This document shows, piece after piece, positions 18,543-40,205 of a stretch of 44,039 nt of DNA. A program made the translations under genes and the position numbers. Origin of the DNA: a phage; NCBI GenBank assembly GCA_030821775.1, contig GCA_030821775.1_4700.1; one strand, given 5' to 3'. The notes beneath the pieces were generated by a model that worked only from the letters and a program-made list of their open reading frames with translations, was not told the DNA's origin and made no database searches. Positions within the stretch are counted from its first letter, which is position 1, and every line of letters starts with the position of its first letter.

Positions 18543-21161
18543 TTAAGCAAAACAGTAGTCGCTATCCATGATTTCGTTCAGGTCAAAGCTGCCTTGCTCT
18601 GGCACTTCGATGCCAGTATCAACCATCCAGCGGTCTTCGTGCTCATCAAGCAGTTTCTGCAAGGCGTTCCCTTCTGAGTACATGCCAACCATTTCTGATT
18701 TCAGTGCATGACGCAGCTTAGCGGTATTGTCTGCGTGAGTACCAAAGGAGTCGTGAATCACTGCAATACTCGTCACCCCTTCATCAACCAGATGACAGAC
18801 GGTCAGAATCAGGTGGCTTGCGTCATGACCATGAACGAAGTTAGGCGCTGCTGCTCCCATCATAGCGGTTTCATCCACTACATCAGTTTCAACTTGCAGA
18901 CTCATTTTGATGTCACCCATCAGGCAGGTGCGCACACGGAGCATCTCGGTCGCCATAATTTTCTGCTTCAGGATGAAGCCAGTTGGCAGTGGGTATTCCA
19001 ACCCTTCATTGCGCTTAGCTGCAAAGCGAGCCAACTTGCGAATCATCTGCATCGCCACTACCGGAGCCTTAACAACCTCAGAGATGGAAGGCCAGATGAG
19101 CGCCGTCATGTAGTTGTATGCTTTAGCCGGAGTAAGTTCACCGTTATCATCAAACGGGTGCACACGGTTCGCTGCGCGCCCTTCTGCCACCGCCATTTGT
19201 GCCTCTTTCTCTTCCAAATCGACGATATAGTCAATCACAGAATCACGGCAGGTGATGCGAGTAGAGCCGTAAGGCAGCGTCATTACTGGTTTCTTGGTCA
19301 GGCCACGGGTAATGCCTACGCTATCCCATGCGCTAGCCATAGCTCGAAGGTCAGAGCCGGAGAGGGTTAGGCTTCCGCTCGTGAAGGTCGTCCCTTCTTC
19401 GGCATCCATATAGAGCACATTTTTAGAAATGACCACCTGTGCAACCGCGCCGTAAATATCCTGCGGAGCGTCGGACGGCTTCAGGTTTACAGCTTTAGCG
19501 CCCACCTCATCGCGTAACATAGCGGAGTAATGCTGAATGCCGGAGCAAGAGCCATCTTGGTGGACTGGCAGGTGAGTTTCGAAATCGGCCTGCGTCCCTT
19601 TATCCAGTGCATCCAGATAGCGGGAGTATTCGAAGCACCAAGCAAGAAATTGGTACGGCTCATCCGCTTTAGCCCACTGTGTGAAAGTCAGCGGGTCGGC
19701 TGCAATGTCACGGCACATATCTTGGAAATCACCGTCTAACACGTTGGACTGACGTACGTCAAAGGTCTTCTTATCCCAACCCCACAGGTTAGCGCCCAGC
19801 ACGAGGAACCATTTAAGAGCTCCAGCGCTGTCAATCTTCCGCCCCTCTGTGAAGCGTAACAGAGATTTACCCAGGTCGTTAGACTGTGGGGACAGGGTGG
19901 AAGATTGAGCGTAAACACGGCTGCGGCTGTCCATCACGTAGACGAAGTAGATGGATTCAAAGGCGCTATATTTGCGAGCCTGTCCAATCATGCGAACCAC
20001 GGCGGCAGACTTGGAGCCGCGCTTTGTTTCGGCGGTGTATAGTCGCGCACACTCCCCTTTCCAGTTAATGAACGCCTGCCATTGCTCTTCTGATAGCATT
20101 TCTTTCAATTCACGACCCCGAAGATGTTGGAACTCAACCGGAACAGGGTTAGCAGGCTTGTTTTCCTTGTCAATTAGTGGCTTAAAGGACGGCACACCAT
20201 AGCCCAAATCAAGGCGGATGACGTCTTCAGCTACCGCTAAAACCTCTTTGTTAACCTGCCATTTGGTGTTTTGTAAGGCGTTAATAGCCTTGTACACCTT
20301 AGGCATTTGCTTAACAGTAAGTTTGCGAACATGCTCACGGTCGCCCTTAACCAGACGCACACGACTAGCCACCTTCTCAGTATGGAAGCCACCATTAAAC
20401 GGGGTTTTCCAAGGACGAGGAGGAACAACGCAAGGAGCATAGGCTGGGGCCAGTTGTGCTACGTGCTCTTTAAAGGCTGCAATCCATTGGCCTACAGTTT
20501 CGGAGGTTTGCAGGTAATAAATAGTTTTACCGCCAAATGAGCGCATAGCGCGAACGAACACAGGCTCACCGTTGTAGAATACGCTAGCTTCTAGTATTTC
20601 CAGCAGGGTAGTACCAATCTGCAATTGTGTATCTTTAGGCCATGCCTCCCAGCGGTCAAAGTCAGCGTCTTTAGCGGCTACAGACTTCTCAGCCACTACA
20701 GCTACATTGTGAGCGTGACGGTATGACTTGGTGCGGCTAGCCTTAAGCGATTTCTTCACTTTCTCGAAGTATTTCGCGGCGTGGCCTTCCAGCTTGCTGA
20801 AGCGCACTTGGTCTTCGATGCGCTCGGCAATGCTCATAGAAATGGCCTGCAATGTTACATCAGTGTTCAGCATATCCATAACTACCTTCATGGTAATATA
20901 GGCTGCCACCTCGTTTTCTACACACTGTAAGAAGGCTAGGGCACGAGGAGCGCGGCCTTTCTTGCCTTCGTATTCTTCTTTGTAAGCCTGAATGCCTTCA
21001 GCCATAGGCGCGATTAATTCAGACAGCAGGCGGCGATTCCATGCCGTATCTGATTCATTACCCGATGCTATTTGGCGCTGTTGGTCTGCCTCAAAGCGAC
21101 GGATCCCGCCATTAAACATTTCTTCTTCAAGCTGAAGCTGGATAGCGTGTAAGTCCTGCAT
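18543..21161 (-). CDS. Single-subunit DNA-dependent RNA polymerase, SP6-type
   Basis: 872-aa ORF with AGGAG SD; N-terminus [32 protein letters not shown]... and overall sequence match my recollection of SP6 RNAP almost residue for residue; consistent with the SP6-type promoters across the genome. Confidence 0.95.
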
Positions 21162-22290: not shown

Positions 22291-22620
22291 TTACTCTTCC
22301 TCTTCGTCTTCATACCAAACTACACTGCTATTATTTGGCACATCATTATAAAGCGCCTCATAAATGCGAGCCTGTAGAATCTTGGTTACGTCCTTAGTGT
22401 CAGAAATCAAGCCAGCATCCTCGAATTCGGTATCAATACCGTCGGCTGCCATCACAGTAAAGATTTCATGATAATAGTGAGGTACCTTGCCGTCTACAAC
22501 CTCATGCAGTGCATCAGAATAATCATCATCTTCACGGATACCATCGTATTGAATGCGTTCATTGAATGCTTCAACAGTTGCAGCCAGAAGTTCATAATAA
22601 GCGTTTGCATCACGTTTCAT
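22291..22620 (-). CDS. ocr: Ocr-like DNA-mimic anti-restriction protein (T7 gp0.3 homolog)
   Basis: 109-aa highly acidic ORF with GAGGA SD. The core ERIQYDGIREDDD...VPHYYHEIFTVMAADGIDTEFEDAGLISDTKDVTKILQARIYEAL aligns closely with T7 Ocr as I recall it; acidic C-terminal tail. Confidence 0.8.
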   Translation of the reverse strand: MKRDANAYYELLAATVEAFNERIQYDGIREDDDYSDALHEVVDGKVPHYYHEIFTVMAADGIDTEFEDAGLISDTKDVTKILQARIYEALYNDVPNNSSVVWYEDEEEE

Positions 22621-22769
22621 GATTTAATCCTCATTAGTTAGTTAGGTTACATTATAGGAGACTCAAGAGAATCTCCTAGATTTAACCTATCCCGACTAAG
22701 AAGCTACCTATCCAAATCGTTAAAGAGCTTGGTTTGCGCCTTGATAGGCCAGCTTATGCTGGCTGCTAT

Positions 22770-22949
22770 CTATTTGTAAACACGTAACAAGTGCAAGGAT
22801 TGCTTAAAGCCGTGCTCTTTGATATATGCAATAGTTCTTATATGACAAGTAAAAGCAGGCTCCCATTTATCAGACCCTCGCTTCTTACCATATATCACCT
22901 CCATATCTTCTAAGATATCGTACTTTAATCTATCAGTAAGTTTACGCAT
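22770..22949 (-). CDS. Small early protein (59 aa)
   Basis: Hand-translated ORF MRKLTDRLKYDILEDMEVIYGKKRGSDKWEPAFTCHIRTIAYIKEHGFKQSLHLLRVYK; weak SD. Confidence 0.35.
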   Translation of the reverse strand: MRKLTDRLKYDILEDMEVIYGKKRGSDKWEPAFTCHIRTIAYIKEHGFKQSLHLLRVYK

Positions 22950-23063
22950 GATAGTTTACCTTATCAGTAAGCCTATCAAGACACAAACCAAATTATTAAA
23001 GAGCGTTGCCTCTCGGCTATGTGCTTAATGTAACCTTGTATGCCGTGGCTGTCAATAGTTAAT

Positions 23064-23288
23064 TTAGAGACTTGTCGTGATTACTTCATCGTAATCATAA
23101 TCTTCACTACCTAGATACTCAGTAATGACTTGGTTGTCATACTCAGACACTAAGGTAACTCGGTGATACTCAGTGCTGTAGTCTATCAAGTAGTGATACA
23201 CATCAACACCTACACCGGCTTGCATCATATCATCATGGAAGCGAATAGCTTCGCTAGCTGATTCAAAGAATACCTCATGTTGATACAC
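23064..23288 (-). CDS. Small acidic early protein (74 aa)
   Basis: GTG start with strong SD (GGAGGG), coupled to the upstream gene (TAGTG); ~25 percent Asp/Glu plus many Tyr. Confidence 0.5.
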   Translation of the reverse strand: MYQHEVFFESASEAIRFHDDMMQAGVGVDVYHYLIDYSTEYHRVTLVSEYDNQVITEYLGSEDYDYDEVITTSL

Positions 23289-23467
23289 TATTTACCCTCC
23301 CTCAGCTCATCTATCATGTTACGGTATTGATTAACCGTATCGGTCCAACCTTCGTTAATGAAACGGTGATACAAAGCTAGCTCATCATCTGTAAGCAATT
23401 CGTTGTTACGAATCATATAGCATAACAAGGTGAAGAGAACGGATAGTTCACGGTTGTTTAATGTCAT
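23288..23467 (-). CDS. Small early protein (first gene after host promoter)
   Basis: Track ORF 23288..23509 begins at an alternative start; the ATG at 23467 has a GAGGAA SD and gives a 59-aa product. Confidence 0.45.
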   Translation of the reverse strand: MTLNNRELSVLFTLLCYMIRNNELLTDDELALYHRFINEGWTDTVNQYRNMIDELREGK

Positions 23468-23610
23468 AGCTAATTCCTCATTCAATAAGTAATTAACCAC
23501 GGCATACACAGGTTACACTAAGCAAATTGTTAAAGAGCAATGTAGGCGCTAGTCTCTTCGTAGGCCTTACTAGCTGGCTACTAGGTGCCTCAGCACCGCC
23601 TACGTGATGC

Positions 23611-23639
23611 ATTATGCATACACTAAGATAACTTGTCAA
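23611..23639 (-). promoter_or_regulatory. Sigma70-type host promoter for early transcription
   Basis: Minus strand reads TTGACA, 17-nt spacer, CATAAT (-35 at plus 23634-23639, -10 at plus 23611-23616), ~100-140 nt upstream of the first early gene. Confidence 0.5.
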
Positions 23640-23650
23640 CACTCTTTATC

Positions 23651-23668
23651 GTCCAACATGTTAGACAA
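23651..23668. repeat. Conserved palindrome, copy P7 (imperfect)
   Basis: GTCCAACATGTTAGACAA, one mismatch in the right arm, just upstream of the -35 of the putative host promoter. Confidence 0.6.
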
Positions 23669-23789
23669 GGCAAACTAAGGCAGTTCGAGGCAGATTTCAG
23701 GTGTTCCCTACTGCATCTTATTATTCTTCTCTTTCTTTAGCGGTCTACCGACCGCGACCTATTCGCATCTTATAGCGTAGCTATGCAAT

Positions 23790-24170
23790 CACTAAGGTAA
23801 CACTAAGACAGCAATAGATAGCCACTAAGCTAGTCACTAAGGTAGCTACTAAGGAAGTGACTAAGGTATTACTCAAGGTACACGTCAGGTAGTGCAGCGA
23901 GCGATAGCGAGCAATGGCGGGCAAATGGACAGATAGCCCACGCCCACACACGCTGTCAAGCGTCCCATAAGCGCCCTAAATGGCCCTGTGCCTGCACTAA
24001 GAGGCTTCACTAAGGCAATCACCTTGTCCAACACTAAGCCCACCCATAGGCTGTCCTAGGCCGTCTACCGCGTTCCACCTTACTAGTACACGGCAAAACG
24101 AGGACGGCCCTTGTGTACCACTAAGCTAGTACATGTGCCTGCACTAGTAAACTAGTACAACCAAGCCACC
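23790..24170. repeat. Short direct-repeat arrays in the non-coding genome-terminus region
   Basis: About 12 copies of CACTAAG(G) and relatives, four copies of ACTAGTACA, GCGAGC and GGCGAG triplets, and a 13-bp direct repeat TGTGCCTGCACTA at ~23987 and ~24134; no ORF with SD on the coding strand. Confidence 0.55.
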
Positions 24171-24440
24171 CTATGGGGACATCCCGGCGAGGGCGAGGGC
24201 GAGAGAGCTGACACACGCCTATATCAAAATTTTGACTTTGGTTACTTTGTGTACATCCATAATGAATACATCAGGGCAGCCAATAGGCTACCTGCACAAG
24301 CTATAGCGATAACCTGTAGCCAATTCTTAGGGTCTGTAGGTTCATATGAAACCCAACCATCTTTCAGCATGTTACCTCCCTTGGAATACACTAAGGACAA
24401 ACCTAAGTCTGCCCTTGTTTATACTAAGATATTAACCTGC

Positions 24441-24590
24441 TTACGCAGAAGATGCAGAAGGTTTCTTCATGGCACGACGTTGAACATCCTTGGCAATGGT
24501 ATAAGCCTGCTTAGGGTCACGTCCTGATTGAATAAGCTCTTCTGTGTTCTGGAGTACAGCAGCTTGCTTAACTGATTTTATTAAGGGCAT
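24441..24590 (-). CDS. Small ORF (49 aa) after the distal tailspike gene
   Basis: Hand-translated MPLIKSVKQAAVLQNTEELIQSGRDPKQAYTIAKDVQRRAMKKPSASSA; AGGAGG SD overlaps the tailspike stop. Last ORF before the terminal region. Confidence 0.35.
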   Translation of the reverse strand: MPLIKSVKQAAVLQNTEELIQSGRDPKQAYTIAKDVQRRAMKKPSASSA

Positions 24591-24601
24591 TCAACCTCCT
24601 A

Positions 24602-26314
24602 CTACTTTGCAACCCAACCTTGAGCAGATGTACCAGATTCTTTAATGTACAATGTACTACCACCAGACCCATTAATACCAGTTGCCAAAGAACCGACAGG
24701 TGCACCTACACCTAAAGTTGTAGGATTGCCATTTAGTCCATAAACAATCACCGTACTAGAACCGACTCCTTGGTTATTCTGAGGTGCTTGCGTACCATAG
24801 CAATCATTGCCAATTAGTTTAATATTGGAGCAAGAAGAAGTAACACAAATACCAAGGCTTGGCTTGTTAGGGCTTTCTCCATCTACTCCAATATTACCTT
24901 CTACTAGGATGTTGTTAGCTCCTGTGTCTATACTAATGAAGTGTCTACCTGCTTCAGCGGTAGATACTTCCTTCATATTATTAGCTTTAATCACTAGACC
25001 GCTAGCCTTGCAGTTTACATGAATACCATATTGCCCTAATTTAGAGAAGATATTACGACTAAGTATACCTTCTCCTGATAAACCAGTACCAATGAATGTA
25101 GTAGCATCAGACTCACCTAACCAAATCCCACTACCTCTTCCGTTTTCCCAAGTATTACCTTCGATGTGGTATTTTGTCCCAAAGCGTAAACCGATTAACC
25201 CTAAGCCACCAGAGCCTGTATTACCTTTTACAATTAAATTCTTACACCACCTTGCATCTACACCATAGGATACATCCCCTGTGAGGATCATAGTATTATT
25301 AGAAATTTCAATATGGTCATGCCAAATGTCACTAATATCGGTAAAAGGCCAAGATGGTGCATCAATTAGCACTGGTGCTCTTACGCCATCAAAAGTACAA
25401 CCTACAACACTACCTTGTCGAGTCCCTTGCGGTTTAGTTTGAGAGGAGACAGGTGTAACATGAACGCCTCTTGCATTAGAGTTTCTAAAGGTGCAACCAC
25501 GTACTGTCCAGTTTTTCCAGTTAAATACACGTACACCTGCAAAGAGAGCACCATCTGTAGTGCAATTCAAGATACGGATATTGTTGCCCTGTACACCATA
25601 AGCTGAGGCGTGATTTCCGATTAGTGCACCATAACCTCCAAACCCGGATTCTGGGTTTGGACCAGCATAGCAATTCTCCACCAGCATACCACTAGACTGC
25701 ACATAGTGACCAACTGTAATAAGTCCTGGGTCTAACTGTATAGCCTCTGAGAAGCTACGACTGCCTGTATTCTTAAACCCTAGGAATTTACAATCACGAA
25801 TAACTACGTTGTTCCAATCTGCTAAATCTATGGCGTGGTAGTCCACTACATTGTTAACTGTTATGCCTTCAAACTTCAAATCATTATTACTAGTAGATGC
25901 AAATACTACAAAAGGTGTATCCCCTTTAGTGTGACCATTGCCTTCATAGACACCTCCACTGACTGTTACATTACTAGCTTGCCTTTGTGATAATCTGAAT
26001 AGCGTATCTCCTGTTTCGTAGTCACGTACAAATGTTACACCTTTAGCAACCTTGAAGTGTGTATTAGCAAATATCTCAACAGTACCACTGAGTTTATATT
26101 CGCCAGCTTTAGTGACTGATACAGTACCACCGCCTAGCAATCTGACCGCATTGAATGCAGCTTGAAGGGCTTGCCTGTTGTCATTAGAAGAGGGATTAAC
26201 TCCAAAATCCGCAACATCTATTGTATCCGATAGTTTATCAGATAGCAGGCGCTCAATAGTACCTGTTAGTTTACTCTTGTACTTCACCAAGTAAGCACTT
26301 AATCTTTGAAGCAT
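24602..26314 (-). CDS. Tailspike 2: beta-helix polysaccharide depolymerase
   Basis: 570-aa ORF with AAGGAGG SD; N-terminal pectate-lyase-3-like motif (DVADFGVNP...), many Gly/Asn-rich repeat turns typical of right-handed parallel beta-helix tailspikes; terminal position as in SP6/K1-5. Confidence 0.7.
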   Translation of the reverse strand: MLQRLSAYLVKYKSKLTGTIERLLSDKLSDTIDVADFGVNPSSNDNRQALQAAFNAVRLLGGGTVSVTKAGEYKLSGTVEIFANTHFKVAKGVTFVRDYETGDTLFRLSQRQASNVTVSGGVYEGNGHTKGDTPFVVFASTSNNDLKFEGITVNNVVDYHAIDLADWNNVVIRDCKFLGFKNTGSRSFSEAIQLDPGLITVGHYVQSSGMLVENCYAGPNPESGFGGYGALIGNHASAYGVQGNNIRILNCTTDGALFAGVRVFNWKNWTVRGCTFRNSNARGVHVTPVSSQTKPQGTRQGSVVGCTFDGVRAPVLIDAPSWPFTDISDIWHDHIEISNNTMILTGDVSYGVDARWCKNLIVKGNTGSGGLGLIGLRFGTKYHIEGNTWENGRGSGIWLGESDATTFIGTGLSGEGILSRNIFSKLGQYGIHVNCKASGLVIKANNMKEVSTAEAGRHFISIDTGANNILVEGNIGVDGESPNKPSLGICVTSSCSNIKLIGNDCYGTQAPQNNQGVGSSTVIVYGLNGNPTTLGVGAPVGSLATGINGSGGSTLYIKESGTSAQGWVAK

Positions 26315-30031: not shown

Positions 30032-30049
30032 CTATAGTGTCCCCTAATT
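30032..30049 (-). promoter_or_regulatory. SP6-type phage promoter (variant) at the 3' end of the large terminase gene
   Basis: Plus CTATAGTGTCCCCTAATT overlapping the terminase stop codon. Confidence 0.6.
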
Positions 30050-31946
30050 ACCAAGTCCTTGATATTCTTGAAGAAAGAGTATTTCGAGACTTGACCTGCA
30101 TCGTGGGTGCATTTCCGTAGACACGGCGCTGCATTGCCACTGACGTATTCACCTGTTTTCGATAACCGTGGTCTTGTCCTGTGAAGAACTCACGGCGACG
30201 GCGAGGGTCATGCATCATCTCAAGATAATCGCGCATCTCCTGCGCTCTGAGGCGATTTATCCGGTTAACCTCGTCATAGTCTATCTGAGAAGTTAATTGC
30301 CGTATAGCGCCGTACAGTGCGTCTAAGCGGTCATCATGTCGCAGGCACCCTTTCTCCAGAGTGATGTTCGAGATTTGAGCAAACAGGCTGTAGCTCATCC
30401 GAACCTCCAGAGGGTAGTGCTGGATGCTGTCAATGTCCTGCTTGATCATCTCAGCGTTGAAGATGATGCGGTGCGCGGAGAACAGCGGTTCAAGCGTCTC
30501 GATGATACGAACCTCTTTCTGACCGTGTGCGTAGTCTTCTTTCAACTCGGCAGGCCACTCACGTTCGAAGTATGGCTTAATTACCGCCTCAAACGCACCG
30601 TGACCGAAGTTCTTCTCTATGAAGACCTCTTTTACCCCTGCGGCCTTAGCCTCGCGCACAATGCGACTGAGCGCGTTCTCGGAGTATCCGCCAGGCACAC
30701 CGAAGCATTTATAGACGTAGATGAACGTCCCCAACAGGAATACGATAGCCACGCCAGTTTCGTCGCCGTTCTTACCGCCACCAGCGGGGTCAATGTACAT
30801 GACGCGGCGCTGGATTGGTCGCCACTCATACGGGCGTGCAACCGGACGGTACAGGTAGTCTGTAGGCTTGTTACCGAAGCGCGGAGCGTCACCAATCAAG
30901 TTGAGAGTGTCGTTGCTCCAAGTCGGCATCTCTGGGACAACATCTGTACCAAAGCTCATGCAGATAAGCTGGTTCAGGCGCAGGGGGTAACGGTCTGCGT
31001 CCATCAGGCGCGTGTTCAGCATGAACTGTAGCTGGAACTTAGCAGTACCTTGTGAGATTTCCTTCTCAATCAGCTTCTCGTCATCGTACATTTCAGGGCA
31101 AGTTGGAGCGCCCTGAGTCCCGTCGATGCCATAACCTGAGCGCAGTGACGGGTCTTCCATCATATCTTGGCGAATCATCGGTGCGAGGAAGTCGCCGTAG
31201 CAAGCCTCCTGCTCTAACGTTGGATACCGTCCGGGCCAGATTCGAATCTGATAGCCACGCGCTGGTAAGTTGTTGTAGATGGAGTTCACGCTCTGAGGCG
31301 TACCAAGGTAGATGATGTCACCGAACTGGTTGATTGATTCAAACTCTTTGGTCAGGTCTTCCAGCAAGGCACGGCCTGCTGCGGTACGGCTGTTCTGCAA
31401 CGATTCAACGTCATCAGCCAAGATGATGTCTGCACGAGCACCCTGCATACCCGCCTCGATAGAGTAGCAGGCCACGGACGGAGACTTGTCACTACCACGT
31501 AATGTGTAGTGAATCTCAAAGCCTTTGATTGAAGCCTTGTCACCTGCGTAGATGTCAGGCAACATGAACTCCAAGAAGTCCAGACCACGGAAGATTTTGA
31601 TAACCCAGCCTGCGATTTCCTCTGCACGCTTGGCTGTCTGCGACACAATCATGATACGCTTGTGTGGTTCATGGATGATACGAAATACAGAGTAGATTGC
31701 AGCGATTGTGGTCTTAGCCTGTCCACGCTGTGCCTCTACCATTCGATATTTGTTCCCACTGAATAGGAACTTTAAGATATCCGCTTGTACCCGATTCAAA
31801 TCAGGGTTGCCAGTGATTAATGTATTGATTACAACCTGAGCGAATGACAGAAGTCCCTGCACGGTATACGGGAATGTTTGTTGTAACTCGTGCAGCAACT
31901 CCCAACGGGCAAGGGCTTCTGCCTGAGATTCCCTTGCTTTTGCCAT
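30048..31946 (-). CDS. Terminase large subunit
   Basis: 632-aa ORF with AAGGAGG SD; start overlaps the small-subunit stop (TAATG); ATPase and nuclease-sized domains; position as T7 gp19. Confidence 0.85.
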   Translation of the reverse strand: MAKARESQAEALARWELLHELQQTFPYTVQGLLSFAQVVINTLITGNPDLNRVQADILKFLFSGNKYRMVEAQRGQAKTTIAAIYSVFRIIHEPHKRIMIVSQTAKRAEEIAGWVIKIFRGLDFLEFMLPDIYAGDKASIKGFEIHYTLRGSDKSPSVACYSIEAGMQGARADIILADDVESLQNSRTAAGRALLEDLTKEFESINQFGDIIYLGTPQSVNSIYNNLPARGYQIRIWPGRYPTLEQEACYGDFLAPMIRQDMMEDPSLRSGYGIDGTQGAPTCPEMYDDEKLIEKEISQGTAKFQLQFMLNTRLMDADRYPLRLNQLICMSFGTDVVPEMPTWSNDTLNLIGDAPRFGNKPTDYLYRPVARPYEWRPIQRRVMYIDPAGGGKNGDETGVAIVFLLGTFIYVYKCFGVPGGYSENALSRIVREAKAAGVKEVFIEKNFGHGAFEAVIKPYFEREWPAELKEDYAHGQKEVRIIETLEPLFSAHRIIFNAEMIKQDIDSIQHYPLEVRMSYSLFAQISNITLEKGCLRHDDRLDALYGAIRQLTSQIDYDEVNRINRLRAQEMRDYLEMMHDPRRRREFFTGQDHGYRKQVNTSVAMQRRVYGNAPTMQVKSRNTLSSRISRTW

Positions 31947-32245
31947 TAAGCCTCCTTAGCGAAAGCGATAACCTTACCTTGTGAAGCCTGTTTCAACTGA
32001 GCCAGACGCTTAGACAGCTTGGATTCCTCCTGTTGTGCTGCTGGCGTAGCGGTGATGCCGTTATCCAGCACCCACTTACACATCGCACCAACATCCTTAC
32101 CGGACACTAGGCCGATTGTCGCATCAGGGTTATCTTCGATTGCATCTAAGATAGCCTGTGCTTTCTTGTTGAACATCTTCGTAATTGCATTGTGTAGAAT
32201 ACCTACATCATCTTCCGATGCAGCATGTCTGTTATGATTGCTCAC
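31946..32245 (-). CDS. Terminase small subunit (T7 gp18-like)
   Basis: 99-aa ORF, GTG start with GGAGG SD, immediately upstream of and coupled to the large subunit. Confidence 0.6.
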   Translation of the reverse strand: MSNHNRHAASEDDVGILHNAITKMFNKKAQAILDAIEDNPDATIGLVSGKDVGAMCKWVLDNGITATPAAQQEESKLSKRLAQLKQASQGKVIAFAKEA

Positions 32246-37259: not shown

Positions 37260-40205
37260 CTAATTGATCTTCACTCGCCCAATCTTAGTGTTTGCAGCGA
37301 GTTTGCCAGCGGCAGGCGGGTATACCTGCATCCAGCCGTTCTTGTCGATCTTGTTGAAATGAGACTTACTGACGAATGCCTCGGACATTTCACCAGCGAA
37401 CTTAACGTACATAGAGCCATCTGCACGAGTTTCTACTTCGCTAATCTTAGGAACAGCTCCACCACTCTGTGCTAGGTTGTAGGCTTCTGCACGACGAACC
37501 AATAGGCCAGTTTGACGCTTACCTTCGGAAGATGCAGTGGCTAGCATTTCAATAAACCCATCAGTAAACCGACCAGCCTTGAACGCTTCATATGCACGAG
37601 GTGACTTCTGGATGCCACCTCTACCAAGGTTGTAGCTTAAATCCATGATACCACGCTGTACACCGGGATGCATTTTGTCAAAAGGCACAGCCCAATCACG
37701 AGTAGAAGGTACATGGCTCTTCATGTCCTGCTTGAGAAGTTTCATAGCTCGCTCTGGTGTCAGTTGAGACTGACCAGCTTTGAACGGAACTTTCTCTGAA
37801 CCAATCATGATGTAGCCATTACGCTTCTCTTCGGCAGTCAGGAAGTGACCATATCCAACCGAATGACCATGTGCATCTTTGTACGGTGTGTACACGCCAG
37901 CAACTCGATCAAAGCCAACGTTCATCTGGTTCTCTGTCTTGGCTACATAGTCGAAGAATGTCTGGTTCTTCTTCTCGTAGCCGAACTCAAAGTTAGCAGG
38001 TAGGTTCTCACCAGCAGCAAAGGCAGGAGACATAAGGAAGTCAGCAATACCACGCTTGCCTACTGTCTTAGCAGTAACGTCACCTTTCTGCATAGGCTGC
38101 GCTTGGTAGCCACCAGCACCCCACATGCGCATCTGCTGTGCTTCAAAGTTCTTCTTAGCATCATCACGCTCTTTCACTTTAGCGTCGTAATGTTCCTTGA
38201 GCAACGCTTGTCCTTTAATTTCAGACAGTGGCATTGCTGGAGTGAGAGGCGTTCTGGCAGAACCCCCACGGATTGTGAACATACCACGCTTAGAATCAAC
38301 ATCAATGTAGATGTCAGATTCATCTAAACCTCCTGAATTATCAAGCAATTCCTGCTTGTGGTTATCGATGTACTGACGTAATGCTGTAGGTACATCATTC
38401 TGGTTTACACCTATAGTGTCACCTAAACCACGAGCATCACCTTTGACCAACACACCTTGAGTGAAGAAACCTTCGGAAAGCTGCGTATACTGAGATGTCA
38501 GATAGGATTGCAAGTGACGCTTGATGGTGTCATTGTTGTGACCTGCAATCTTCATCGCACGGGCGATAGTCATTGCATCATCCATCACAAGTGCTTTACC
38601 AGTGTCGCTCATGTTATCTCCAAGAGTTAACCAGCTACCACCAGCAATATCATCAACCACACCCTCAACATCACTGGACAATTCTTTGAGAACTGAGCCT
38701 TGCAACTTCTCACCTTTTGCAACGTTCTGAGCAAACTCAATCGCCTGACCCACGTTGTATCCCATCTGTAACGCCTTGTCGTAGTTCTCCACAAAGGCGT
38801 ACTCCTTGTCGCCCATCACTGCACGGCGGGAGTCTTCTGGAATAGAGTCACGCGCCATCATGATTGTCTTGAGCGCCTCCGGCTCTGCTGTCATATCCTT
38901 AAGGTTAGCAGAAGACATTTGCATCAGTGAGTCGTAACGAGCCTTGATGTTCGGGTCTTTGATGAGTTGCTGCCCCAGCTTGGCATATCGCATGATTTCG
39001 TACTTACCACGGATAGCCTCTGCCGCCTCTCCGGTTGCTCCGGTTCGTGCAATCTCATCGTTTGCCAGCTTGGTGAACACACCAGCGATACCTTCTGCAT
39101 AGTCGTTACGGTCTTTCTCACTAATGTCTTGCAAGCCAAGAGGTGAACCAGATTGACCGCGTGCAAGCAGGTCTTGCATCTTGGCTTCCTCTGCGTTCTT
39201 CTTAGCTACCTTGTCGAACAGTGATTTGATTTCACCGTCAGACCAAGCAGTGCCTCCAGAGATTTGGTTGTGATTCTGCATGATTTGCAGCATCTCTTCT
39301 CGGTCAAGCTCTCCAGCTTCGAATGCCTGAATCGCTGCATCCTTCTTCTCGAAGAGTGCAACCTGATTCTGAGCAGCCCAGTTACGGTTAGCTTGAATCT
39401 CGGCAGTCTGTAGCTTGCCATTCCGCTGGTACAGGGACACACCGTTCTTGTCTTTCAGAGACTTCGTTGCTTCAACAAAGGTGTCATCACCAACAGCAGC
39501 ACGCTCCATAGCAATCTGAGCAATCATCTCTTCATACTCAGGCTTGGTAAGCTGCATGGTGATAGCTTCCTGCTGTAGCTGGTGTAATGCGTCATCAAGA
39601 GCACCACCAGACAGACCTTCTGTAACCATCAGGACACGAGACTGCATAGCCTGTGTGCGCTCTTGTGCTTCACGTTCCAGCTTGGCGCTCATACGGGCAG
39701 CGAAGATTTTAGGTTGCTGCTCCATGAATGCGTTAGACACAGTACGCATGGTTTCTTTGTCCCCGATAAGTCCGGGGTACTGCTGGTATACTTTCTCCTG
39801 AATCTGGTTGCGGGAGTTAACAACCATTTGCTCCCACTCTTGGTCTGTGCCAGTGAAGCGCTTTGCTGCATCCTGTAATGCGATAGATTGTCCTATCACG
39901 TCGTTCTGCAACTGCACCAGCATATGTGCACGAGCGCCACCAACAGTGGCATCATCGGACGGCATCAGACCCTGCAAGGCTCGGTCATATTGACGAACCT
40001 TGTCATCCTCTACCGCCTGATTCATGATTTCCGTGCCTACCTTGGCGAATGCACCAGCGGCGCTAAACAGGTCATCAAGGAATGCGGAGCCTGTACGCTC
40101 CAGCACTGGCTCGCTTACCTGAATAGCGGAGGTGGAAGCACCACGCGGTGCTCCCTTAGATTGTACTTGCTGCAAGCCTTGCACTGCTTGCCGTTCAATT
40201 GCCAT
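37260..40205 (-). CDS. Internal virion protein with C-terminal T4-lysozyme-like domain (gp15-like position)
   Basis: 981-aa ORF with AAGGAG SD; C-terminal region contains YKDAHGHSVGYGHFLT, closely resembling the T4 lysozyme block YKDTEGYYTIGIGHLLT. Confidence 0.75.
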   Translation of the reverse strand: MAIERQAVQGLQQVQSKGAPRGASTSAIQVSEPVLERTGSAFLDDLFSAAGAFAKVGTEIMNQAVEDDKVRQYDRALQGLMPSDDATVGGARAHMLVQLQNDVIGQSIALQDAAKRFTGTDQEWEQMVVNSRNQIQEKVYQQYPGLIGDKETMRTVSNAFMEQQPKIFAARMSAKLEREAQERTQAMQSRVLMVTEGLSGGALDDALHQLQQEAITMQLTKPEYEEMIAQIAMERAAVGDDTFVEATKSLKDKNGVSLYQRNGKLQTAEIQANRNWAAQNQVALFEKKDAAIQAFEAGELDREEMLQIMQNHNQISGGTAWSDGEIKSLFDKVAKKNAEEAKMQDLLARGQSGSPLGLQDISEKDRNDYAEGIAGVFTKLANDEIARTGATGEAAEAIRGKYEIMRYAKLGQQLIKDPNIKARYDSLMQMSSANLKDMTAEPEALKTIMMARDSIPEDSRRAVMGDKEYAFVENYDKALQMGYNVGQAIEFAQNVAKGEKLQGSVLKELSSDVEGVVDDIAGGSWLTLGDNMSDTGKALVMDDAMTIARAMKIAGHNNDTIKRHLQSYLTSQYTQLSEGFFTQGVLVKGDARGLGDTIGVNQNDVPTALRQYIDNHKQELLDNSGGLDESDIYIDVDSKRGMFTIRGGSARTPLTPAMPLSEIKGQALLKEHYDAKVKERDDAKKNFEAQQMRMWGAGGYQAQPMQKGDVTAKTVGKRGIADFLMSPAFAAGENLPANFEFGYEKKNQTFFDYVAKTENQMNVGFDRVAGVYTPYKDAHGHSVGYGHFLTAEEKRNGYIMIGSEKVPFKAGQSQLTPERAMKLLKQDMKSHVPSTRDWAVPFDKMHPGVQRGIMDLSYNLGRGGIQKSPRAYEAFKAGRFTDGFIEMLATASSEGKRQTGLLVRRAEAYNLAQSGGAVPKISEVETRADGSMYVKFAGEMSEAFVSKSHFNKIDKNGWMQVYPPAAGKLAANTKIGRVKIN
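38412..38429 (-). promoter_or_regulatory. SP6-type promoter-like sequence inside the gp15-like gene
   Basis: Plus CTATAGTGTCACCTAAAC, one mismatch at the upstream end, within the coding sequence. Confidence 0.5.

Follow-up and report, generated by a model that had tools for sequence, protein, structure and literature searches.

Genome ends of a K1-5/SP6-like phage: a probable concatemer junction with one collapsed terminal repeat in a circularised assembly

The phage contig GCA_030821775.1_4700.1 (GenBank assembly GCA_030821775.1; 44,039 nucleotides, analysed over its full length and called the window below) carries, at positions 23468 to 24440, an interval crowded with short repeats between its late and its early genes. 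Very probably this interval represents the region around the concatemer junction of a K1-5/SP6-like phage, lying within a circularised assembly that retains one collapsed copy of the direct terminal repeat (DTR). A preliminary description of the sequence had proposed a circularised assembly with its terminal repeat collapsed somewhere near 23.9-24.3 kb, and homology supports the proposal: the DTR is placed at 23934-24206, in single copy in the window. On the minus strand, the right end is read as gp48- and gp49-like genes, a palindrome-bearing element, and then the DTR copy (24206 to 23934); after it come an array of CCTTAGTG, a conserved block, an early promoter (P1), a boxA element, and gene 1. 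This layout of genome ends is standard for the group, and the finding is correct but ordinary. The features of the junction itself are as follows.

24207 to 24262, minus strand: conserved right-unique-end element with palindrome, near-invariant in SP6 and six Vectrevirus genomes (19-genome conservation profile)
23934 to 24206, minus strand: single collapsed copy of the DTR, 269-273 bp, placed by alignment to seven relatives
24186 to 24203, plus strand: (GGCGAG)x3, matching the left terminus of virion DNA, minus strand 5'-TC(TC)TCGCCCTCGCCCTCGCC (Tandem Repeats Finder; starts of the relatives' records)
24065 to 24165, minus strand: variable core of the DTR, with three copies of CTAGTACA and one copy of a 13-bp repeat; low conservation, many indels
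23928 to 23934, minus strand: ATCTGTC at the right boundary of the DTR, in the position of a class II pause signal (window sequence compared with relatives and T7)
23789 to 23868, minus strand: CCTTAGT(G) array of period 12 in the left unique region, six copies (6.8 by Tandem Repeats Finder)

The boundaries of the DTR were set by alignment to seven relatives whose records are linear genomes that begin and end in the same sequence, among them SP6 and K1-5 (AY370673 and AY370674) and R4596 (MK373771.1). Their repeats measure 174 bp in SP6, 234 in K1-5, 267 in KAW1A4500, 285 in R4596, 304 in VEc3, 267 in Mt1B1_P10 (annotated as a direct terminal repeat), and 286 in mutPK1A2 (annotated as a 'redundant repeat'). 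Regardless of length, and across two genera, all seven end exactly at ...GGGCTA/TCTGTTCG (GGGCTA/TCTGTT, the slash marking the boundary), and all seven start within ...GTGTGTCAGC/TC/TC/TCGCCCTCGCCCTCGCCGG (TC/TC/TCGCCCTCGCC). Both boundary sequences are present in the window, the left one as TCTCTCGCCCTCGCC at 24206-24202 and the right one as GGGCTA at 23934 on the minus strand. Another 15 relatives, drawn from IMG/VR contigs and permuted GenBank assemblies, retain the palindrome, the TCTCGCC start, and GGGCTATCTGTT, with implied repeat lengths of 176-307 bp. Differences in DTR length fall in the variable central core (24165-24065), and both flanks are strongly conserved. For UAB_Phi78, an SP6-like phage, Bal31 digestion and run-off sequencing proved a short exact DTR (PMC4837284). 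By homology to these relatives we infer the physical ends of the window phage; its virion DNA would be about 44.3 kb long with the repeat at both ends.

The state of the assembly is consistent with such ends. Gene order runs uninterrupted across the ends of the window, no overlap was found between those ends, and the segment homologous to the DTR is present once in the whole window. We conclude that the window is complete and circularly permuted.

The short repeats named in the preliminary description all withstood examination. CTTAGTG, the minus-strand form of its CACTAAG(G), occurs 21 times in the window against 7.8 +/- 2.7 expected, and 11 of the 21 copies lie in 23516-24395, every one on the minus strand. 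The looser motif CTTAG(T/G) has 30 minus-strand copies, 16 of which are packed into the 1.06 kb between 23400 and 24460. The period-12 array of CCTTAGTG begins the left unique region, about 65 bp genome-inward of the DTR. Three CCTTAGT(G) copies lie before the repeat in the window, four inside, and six after; across the window and all seven relatives there are 3 before, 1-4 inside, and 6-10 in the 200 bp after, almost all on the sense strand. CTAGTACA has only three copies in the window, at 24083, 24126, and 24152. The (GGCGAG)x3 run coincides with the left terminus, as listed above. The 13-bp direct repeat TGTGCCTGCACTA stands at 23987-23999 and 24134-24146, where 0 copies are expected by chance; because this duplication is absent from the relatives in the alignment, it appears to be lineage-specific. 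An expectation that T7-like genomes carry such arrays beside their terminal repeats was checked on the T7 sequence and holds, CCTAAAG being found inside, after, and before the 160-bp repeat.

Since the CCTTAGTG arrays lie on a single strand with copies about one helical turn apart, we conjecture that they are phased binding sites for a phage-specific protein, for example the small terminase. The same repeats might instead have no function of their own and stem from slippage and recombination in non-coding sequence where change is tolerated, an idea we consider unlikely. It would account for the differing copy number (six in the window's post-repeat array, 8-10 in all seven relatives) and for the 13-bp repeat and the CTAGTACA copies, which are not conserved. 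It does not sit well with the motif, its strand, its three-part placement, and many individual positions, all of which are conserved from SP6 to K1-5-like phages, nor with T7, which shows the same layout built from a different heptamer. This conserved placement, repeated in the layout of T7, speaks for selection on the arrays and for their recognition by a phage-specific reader.

ATCTGTT is the class II pause and termination signal of phage RNA polymerases, with the consensus HATCTGTT. In 22 of 22 SP6/K1-5-like relatives the right boundary reads GGGCTATCTGTT, that is GGGCT-A/TCTGTT, so that the signal straddles the end of the repeat. The window has the octamer TATCTGTC (23935-23928) in place of TATCTGTT, differing in the last base; its concatemer junction therefore does not carry the HATCTGTT signal, and exact ATCTGTT was found nowhere on the minus (coding) strand of the window. 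A search for another record with ATCTGTC gave none above 94% identity over the boundary stretch, and the variant was shared by no database record. We accordingly do not file the site as a member of the pause-signal family, although its position is homologous, because ATCTGTC is a real deviation that may affect pausing. Also invariant in all relatives is TTGACAG (23959-23953, minus strand), which lies within the repeat, 19 bp short of its end; in T7 a TTGAGT stands at a comparable distance before ATCTGTT. As a promoter -35 element TTGACAG was rejected, the only candidate -10 elements, CTATCT and TATCTG, being without the key bases. It may belong to the boundary signal.

Several points weigh against the placement of the junction and its ends as given here. 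The relatives' left starts vary by up to 4 nt (TCTCTCG, TCTCG, CTCG, TCG), and the left boundary is for that reason fixed only to 24202-24206. Some of the deposited DTRs are software inferences. For R4596, the paper (Korf et al.) gives a repeat of 428 bp where the record holds an exact 285 bp; for KAW1A4500, paper and record agree within 1 bp (266 and 267). The boundary in the window reads ATCTGTC, not ATCTGTT, and since class II termination by T7 polymerase is reportedly lost on single base changes, the pause step in this phage may differ from that of T7. Neither genome end has a phage promoter nearby, whereas T7 has phiOL. To our knowledge, a function of the arrays has been demonstrated in no phage, T7 included.

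Two further explanations take up parts of this evidence. The ends could lie in this region while the repeat itself is longer, extending for example rightwards through the CCTTAGTG array, which would move the true right boundary away from 23934. The 428 bp given by Korf et al. against the 285-bp exact repeat in the record, the spread of DTR lengths from 174 to 304 bp among relatives, and the departure of the window's boundary signal from consensus all lean that way. We nevertheless hold it to be very improbable: the seven deposited DTRs of two genera all end at GGGCTA/TCTGTT whatever their length, the T7 repeat also ends at that signal, and the variation in length is confined to the central core and spares the boundaries. 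That the interval is instead a regulatory or replication-origin region, with iterons or transcription-factor sites for repeats and headful, permuted packaging without fixed ends here, is scarcely credible, for although phased single-strand arrays do resemble iterons and a very conserved block of unassigned role adjoins them, close relatives have fixed DTR ends at the same locus, the terminase is of the T7/SP6 type, and independent depositors start and stop their linear records at the same bases.

The best candidate for a terminase recognition site is the conserved element of about 55 bp at 24262-24207. It includes a perfect 12-bp palindrome, TCAAAATTTTGA, at 24224-24235, in which R4596 has one substitution; this is probably the palindromic site of the preliminary description. 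T7 packaging requires a pac site together with the terminal repeat (PMC13236587). Farther from the repeat, at 24393 to 24416 on the minus strand, the alignment shows a conserved hairpin, AAGGGCAGAC-TTAG-GUUUGUCCUU, with a 10-bp stem, between the gp48 and gp49 homologues. It sits among three CTTAG(T/G) motifs (24428, 24407, 24395), and this trio at 24428-24395 is the counterpart of the T7 array to the right of the junction. In R4596 and SP6 other bases form the stem of the 24416-24393 hairpin, an apparent covariation judged by eye. Folding of the repeat itself as single-stranded DNA gave z = -1.78, which is not strong enough to support a hairpin intermediate.

By analogy with T7, once the left end had been injected, host RNA polymerase would start at P1 and P2, and its transcription of the early genes would extend as far as the gene for the phage RNA polymerase. 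Replication would then produce concatemers with one copy of the repeat between genomes. Late in infection, the phage RNA polymerase would read from the last late promoter, at 28397-28383, through the junction and pause at the signal on the right boundary of the repeat. Such a pause, and the need for it in concatemer processing, are established for T7 only. In T7, the paused complex of polymerase and lysozyme recruits gp18 and gp19 (PMC3276506). Terminase (small subunit 31946-32245, large subunit 30048-31946) would likewise be recruited here and cut at both conserved boundaries, and the repeat would be duplicated during packaging.

All substantial open reading frames (ORFs) of the window lie on the minus strand, along which the late genes run from 44039 to about 24242 and the early genes from 23467 downwards. 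The genes that bear on the interpretation are these.

31946 to 32245, minus strand: small terminase subunit (PHROG match)
30048 to 31946, minus strand: large terminase subunit (PHROG match)
24602 to 26314, minus strand: tail spike (PHROG match)
24441 to 24590, minus strand: penultimate late gene, homologue of K1-5 gp48, 49 aa (phrog_2423, E 1e-22; 98% identical to K1-5 gp48)
24242 to 24370, minus strand: last gene before the right end of the genome, homologue of K1-5 gp49, 42 aa (ORF; 97.6% identity)
23288 to 23467, minus strand: first early gene (gene 1), 59 aa, ATG at 23467 (phrog_9275, E 5e-40; 98% identical to K1-5 gene 1)
22291 to 22620, minus strand: Ocr-like gene (PHROG match)
18543 to 21161, minus strand: single-subunit, T7-type RNA polymerase (PHROG match)

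PHROG matches for the RNA polymerase and for both terminase subunits mark the genome as one of T7/SP6 type. A search with the terminal region and the surrounding 20 kb places the phage closest to Vectrevirus genomes, which match 70-82% of the query at about 85% nucleotide identity. At this level of identity the window phage is a Vectrevirus relative (K1-5/K1E/SP6-like, Autographiviridae, Molineuxvirinae) that is new at the species level. Its large terminase is 79% identical to the counterpart in Mt1B1_P10, the phage with the annotated 267-bp DTR.

The claim that about 0.9 kb is free of genes held for 23468-24241 and failed for 24242-24370, where the gp49 homologue lies. This protein is 97.6% identical to the annotated gp49 of K1-5 and resembles a single-pass membrane protein, and its gene has a GGGAGG ribosome-binding site 6 nt upstream of the ATG. 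The gene-free stretch proper is the 774 bp from the gp49 homologue to the ATG of gene 1. Small ORFs within 23468-24241 were rejected as genes: they fall on repeats and on variable sequence rich in indels, and in the curated K1-5 record this stretch has no annotated gene. Several GenBank relatives, for example MZ234019.1 and MT496971.1, do have small 'hypothetical proteins' annotated in the terminal repeat or the arrays; because the curated K1-5 record has no gene at that place, these are probably spurious calls. Knowledge of the ends prevents such calls inside the repeat. With ends at about 24206 and 23934, moreover, the genome can be re-oriented to start at TCTCTCGCC and a second copy of the repeat added (~44.3 kb).

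The left end beyond the array contains a conserved non-coding block and an early control region, whose features are listed in minus-strand order.

23785 to 23700, minus strand: highly conserved non-coding block (alignment and 19-genome conservation profile)
23639 to 23611, minus strand: early promoter P1, TTGACA-17-CATAAT, 11/12 to consensus, about 567 nt from the left genome end
23539 to 23527, minus strand: rrn-type boxA, TGCTCTTTAACAA, an exact consensus match 72 nt downstream of the P1 -10 element
23523 to 23495, minus strand: 5' arm of a long-range duplex, 29 nt, starting 3 nt after the first boxA and complementary to 23050-23023
23055 to 23027, minus strand: early promoter P2, TTGACA-17-TACATT, 10/12 to consensus, conserved in relatives
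23050 to 23023, minus strand: 3' arm of the duplex, formed by the P2 spacer and -10 element, downstream of gene 2 (complementarity)
23005 to 22993, minus strand: second, boxA-like element, CGCTCTTTAATAA, 22 nt downstream of the P2 -10 element

Few non-coding stretches of the left end are as conserved as the block at 23785-23700. It contains a palindrome, ATAGC-TAC-GCTAT, which K1-5 and R4596 change in sequence while keeping its symmetry, and an invariant hairpin, GCGGTC-GGTA-GACCGC, at 23740-23755; it is flanked by two TAAGATGC..TAGG repeats about 50 bp apart. The block matched neither the phage-promoter weight matrix nor any Rfam family, and an Rfam scan of 22500-24700 at E <= 1 gave no match at all.

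Both sigma70-like promoters of the preliminary description were recovered at ~23611-23639 and ~23027-23055, and both are conserved in relatives, P1 having the homologue TTGACA-17-TACTAT in K1-5 and R4596 and P2 being kept as TTGACA-17-TACATT. A 3-kb scan found 8 promoter-like sites against 7.2 expected. Because this count is not above chance, we base the assignment on match quality, position, conservation, and the boxA downstream; by these, P1 and P2 are predicted to be sigma70-type early promoters for host RNA polymerase. A local hairpin in the P1 leader (23612-23520), entertained as an RNase III-type site, was dropped, since shuffled sequence folds equally well (z = 0.07). For phage promoters, a weight matrix was built from the window's own 11 promoters. 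It found no SP6-type phage promoter in the terminal region, where the best score was -1.5 against at least 29 at real sites. Upstream of the junction, the series of phage promoters ends at 28397-28383. The phage-type promoter nearest the left end, TATGTGACACTATAA at 22186-22162 (minus strand), follows the Ocr-like gene and is a weak, atypical SP6-type match, scoring 23.4 where the others score 29-38.

A match to the rrn-type boxA consensus stands in a promoter-proximal leader, where a Nus-dependent role in antitermination is putative. At the first boxA a 16-nt run, TGCTCTTTAACAATTT, is identical to the leader of E. coli rrnB, and this boxA is conserved in all relatives checked. The second element, CGCTCTTTAATAA, has two differences from the boxA consensus (C for the first T, and T for C in AACAA). 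The pattern GCTCTTTAA[CT]AA has only two matches on both strands of the 44-kb window, and these are the two boxA elements. Units of promoter and boxA also occur in K1-5, R4596, SP6, and VEc3. We found no usable literature report of boxA in SP6-like or T7 phages, the original SP6 and K1-5 papers (Scholl et al. 2004, Dobbins et al. 2004) lying outside that search.

The duplex that brackets genes 1 and 2 comprises 28 bp, interrupted by one bulge, and has a predicted energy of -53.6 kcal/mol, compared with -19.3 +/- 3.7 for shuffled partners; 23050-23023 is the best partner for 23523-23495 within 6 kb downstream. Across 14 distinct sequences, 99% of cells in the alignment pair, against 25-38% when the partner is slid, and compensatory changes are seen at three pairs, among them a switch from U-A to A-U in five sequences, of which SP6 is one. 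The distance between the arms ranges from 458 to 788 nt in different phages. The G.U pairs in the duplex, some invariant and some variable, imply that pairing would take place in the sense RNA. We suggest, tentatively and with more doubt than belief, that the left-end control region of SP6/K1-5-like phages is a functional mimic of the leader of rRNA operons. If it were, early transcription would resist termination with the aid of host Nus factors, which would also promote pairing of the distant arms, and RNase III would excise the message of genes 1 and 2. This rrn-like early leader, with its boxA and covarying long-range duplex, and the ATCTGTC variant are the unusual details of the region and serve as leads.

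The closest known systems are the ends of SP6 (genus Zindervirus) and K1-5 (genus Vectrevirus), where the boundaries, the palindrome element, the CCTTAGT array, the conserved block, the boxA leader, and genes 1 and 2 are all homologous to those of the window. The K1-5 counterparts of gene 1, gp48, and gp49 are 98% identical to the window's (97.6% for gp49). The differences are concentrated in the repeat and its surroundings. The repeat is 269-273 bp long in the window, 234 in K1-5, and 174 in SP6, and its core is unlike that of SP6/K1-5 and resembles those of R4596 and VEc3. The window further differs in a 13-bp duplication particular to it, an array of 6 copies rather than 8-10, ATCTGTC rather than ATCTGTT, and a P1 -10 element of CATAAT rather than TACTAT.

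The early leader has a cellular parallel in the rrn operons of E. coli, whose leader carries boxB, boxA, and boxC. The phage shares with the rrn leader an identical boxA (TGCTCTTTAACAATTT) and a closing stem that ends 2 nt before boxA, and in both the 5' half of a long-range duplex directly follows boxA, with its partner downstream of the enclosed sequence. In rrnB, pairing of the segment that directly follows boxA with the spacer beyond 16S has a predicted energy of -60 kcal/mol, against -53.6 for the phage duplex; this rrnB stem is the RNase III processing stem that flanks 16S rRNA. The rrn duplex encloses 16S rRNA, whereas the phage duplex encloses two small protein-coding genes (~0.47 kb). 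In the phage, unlike rrn, the 3' arm doubles as promoter P2, and Nus-factor binding and RNase III cleavage are putative.

T7 and the window share no sequence homology at these ends, and the array unit is CCTAAAG in the one and CCTTAGTG in the other, yet the order of parts is the same. In both, the left end starts with TCTC and the repeat ends at the position of the pause signal; in T7, ATCTGTT occupies 161-167, directly after the 160-bp repeat, and the boundary is offset by 1 nt relative to the signal between the two phages. Both have short single-strand arrays inside, before, and after the repeat, those of T7 having CCTAAAG at 17, 41, and 60 within the 160-bp repeat, from 175 to 332 after it, and at 39671 and 39700 before the right copy. 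Both have host-type promoters about 0.5 kb from the left end, three in T7 (A1-A3) and two in the window, followed by a boxA-like CGCTCTTTAACAA, and T7 has CGCTCTTTAACAATCTGG between A3 and gene 0.3. T7 has phiOL at 405, whereas the window is without a phage promoter near its left end. The T7 design of the junction, with conserved cut sites, a pause-signal position at the end of the repeat, and single-strand arrays on both sides, is therefore common to two subfamilies without sequence homology, which points to a common mechanism with phage-specific readers.

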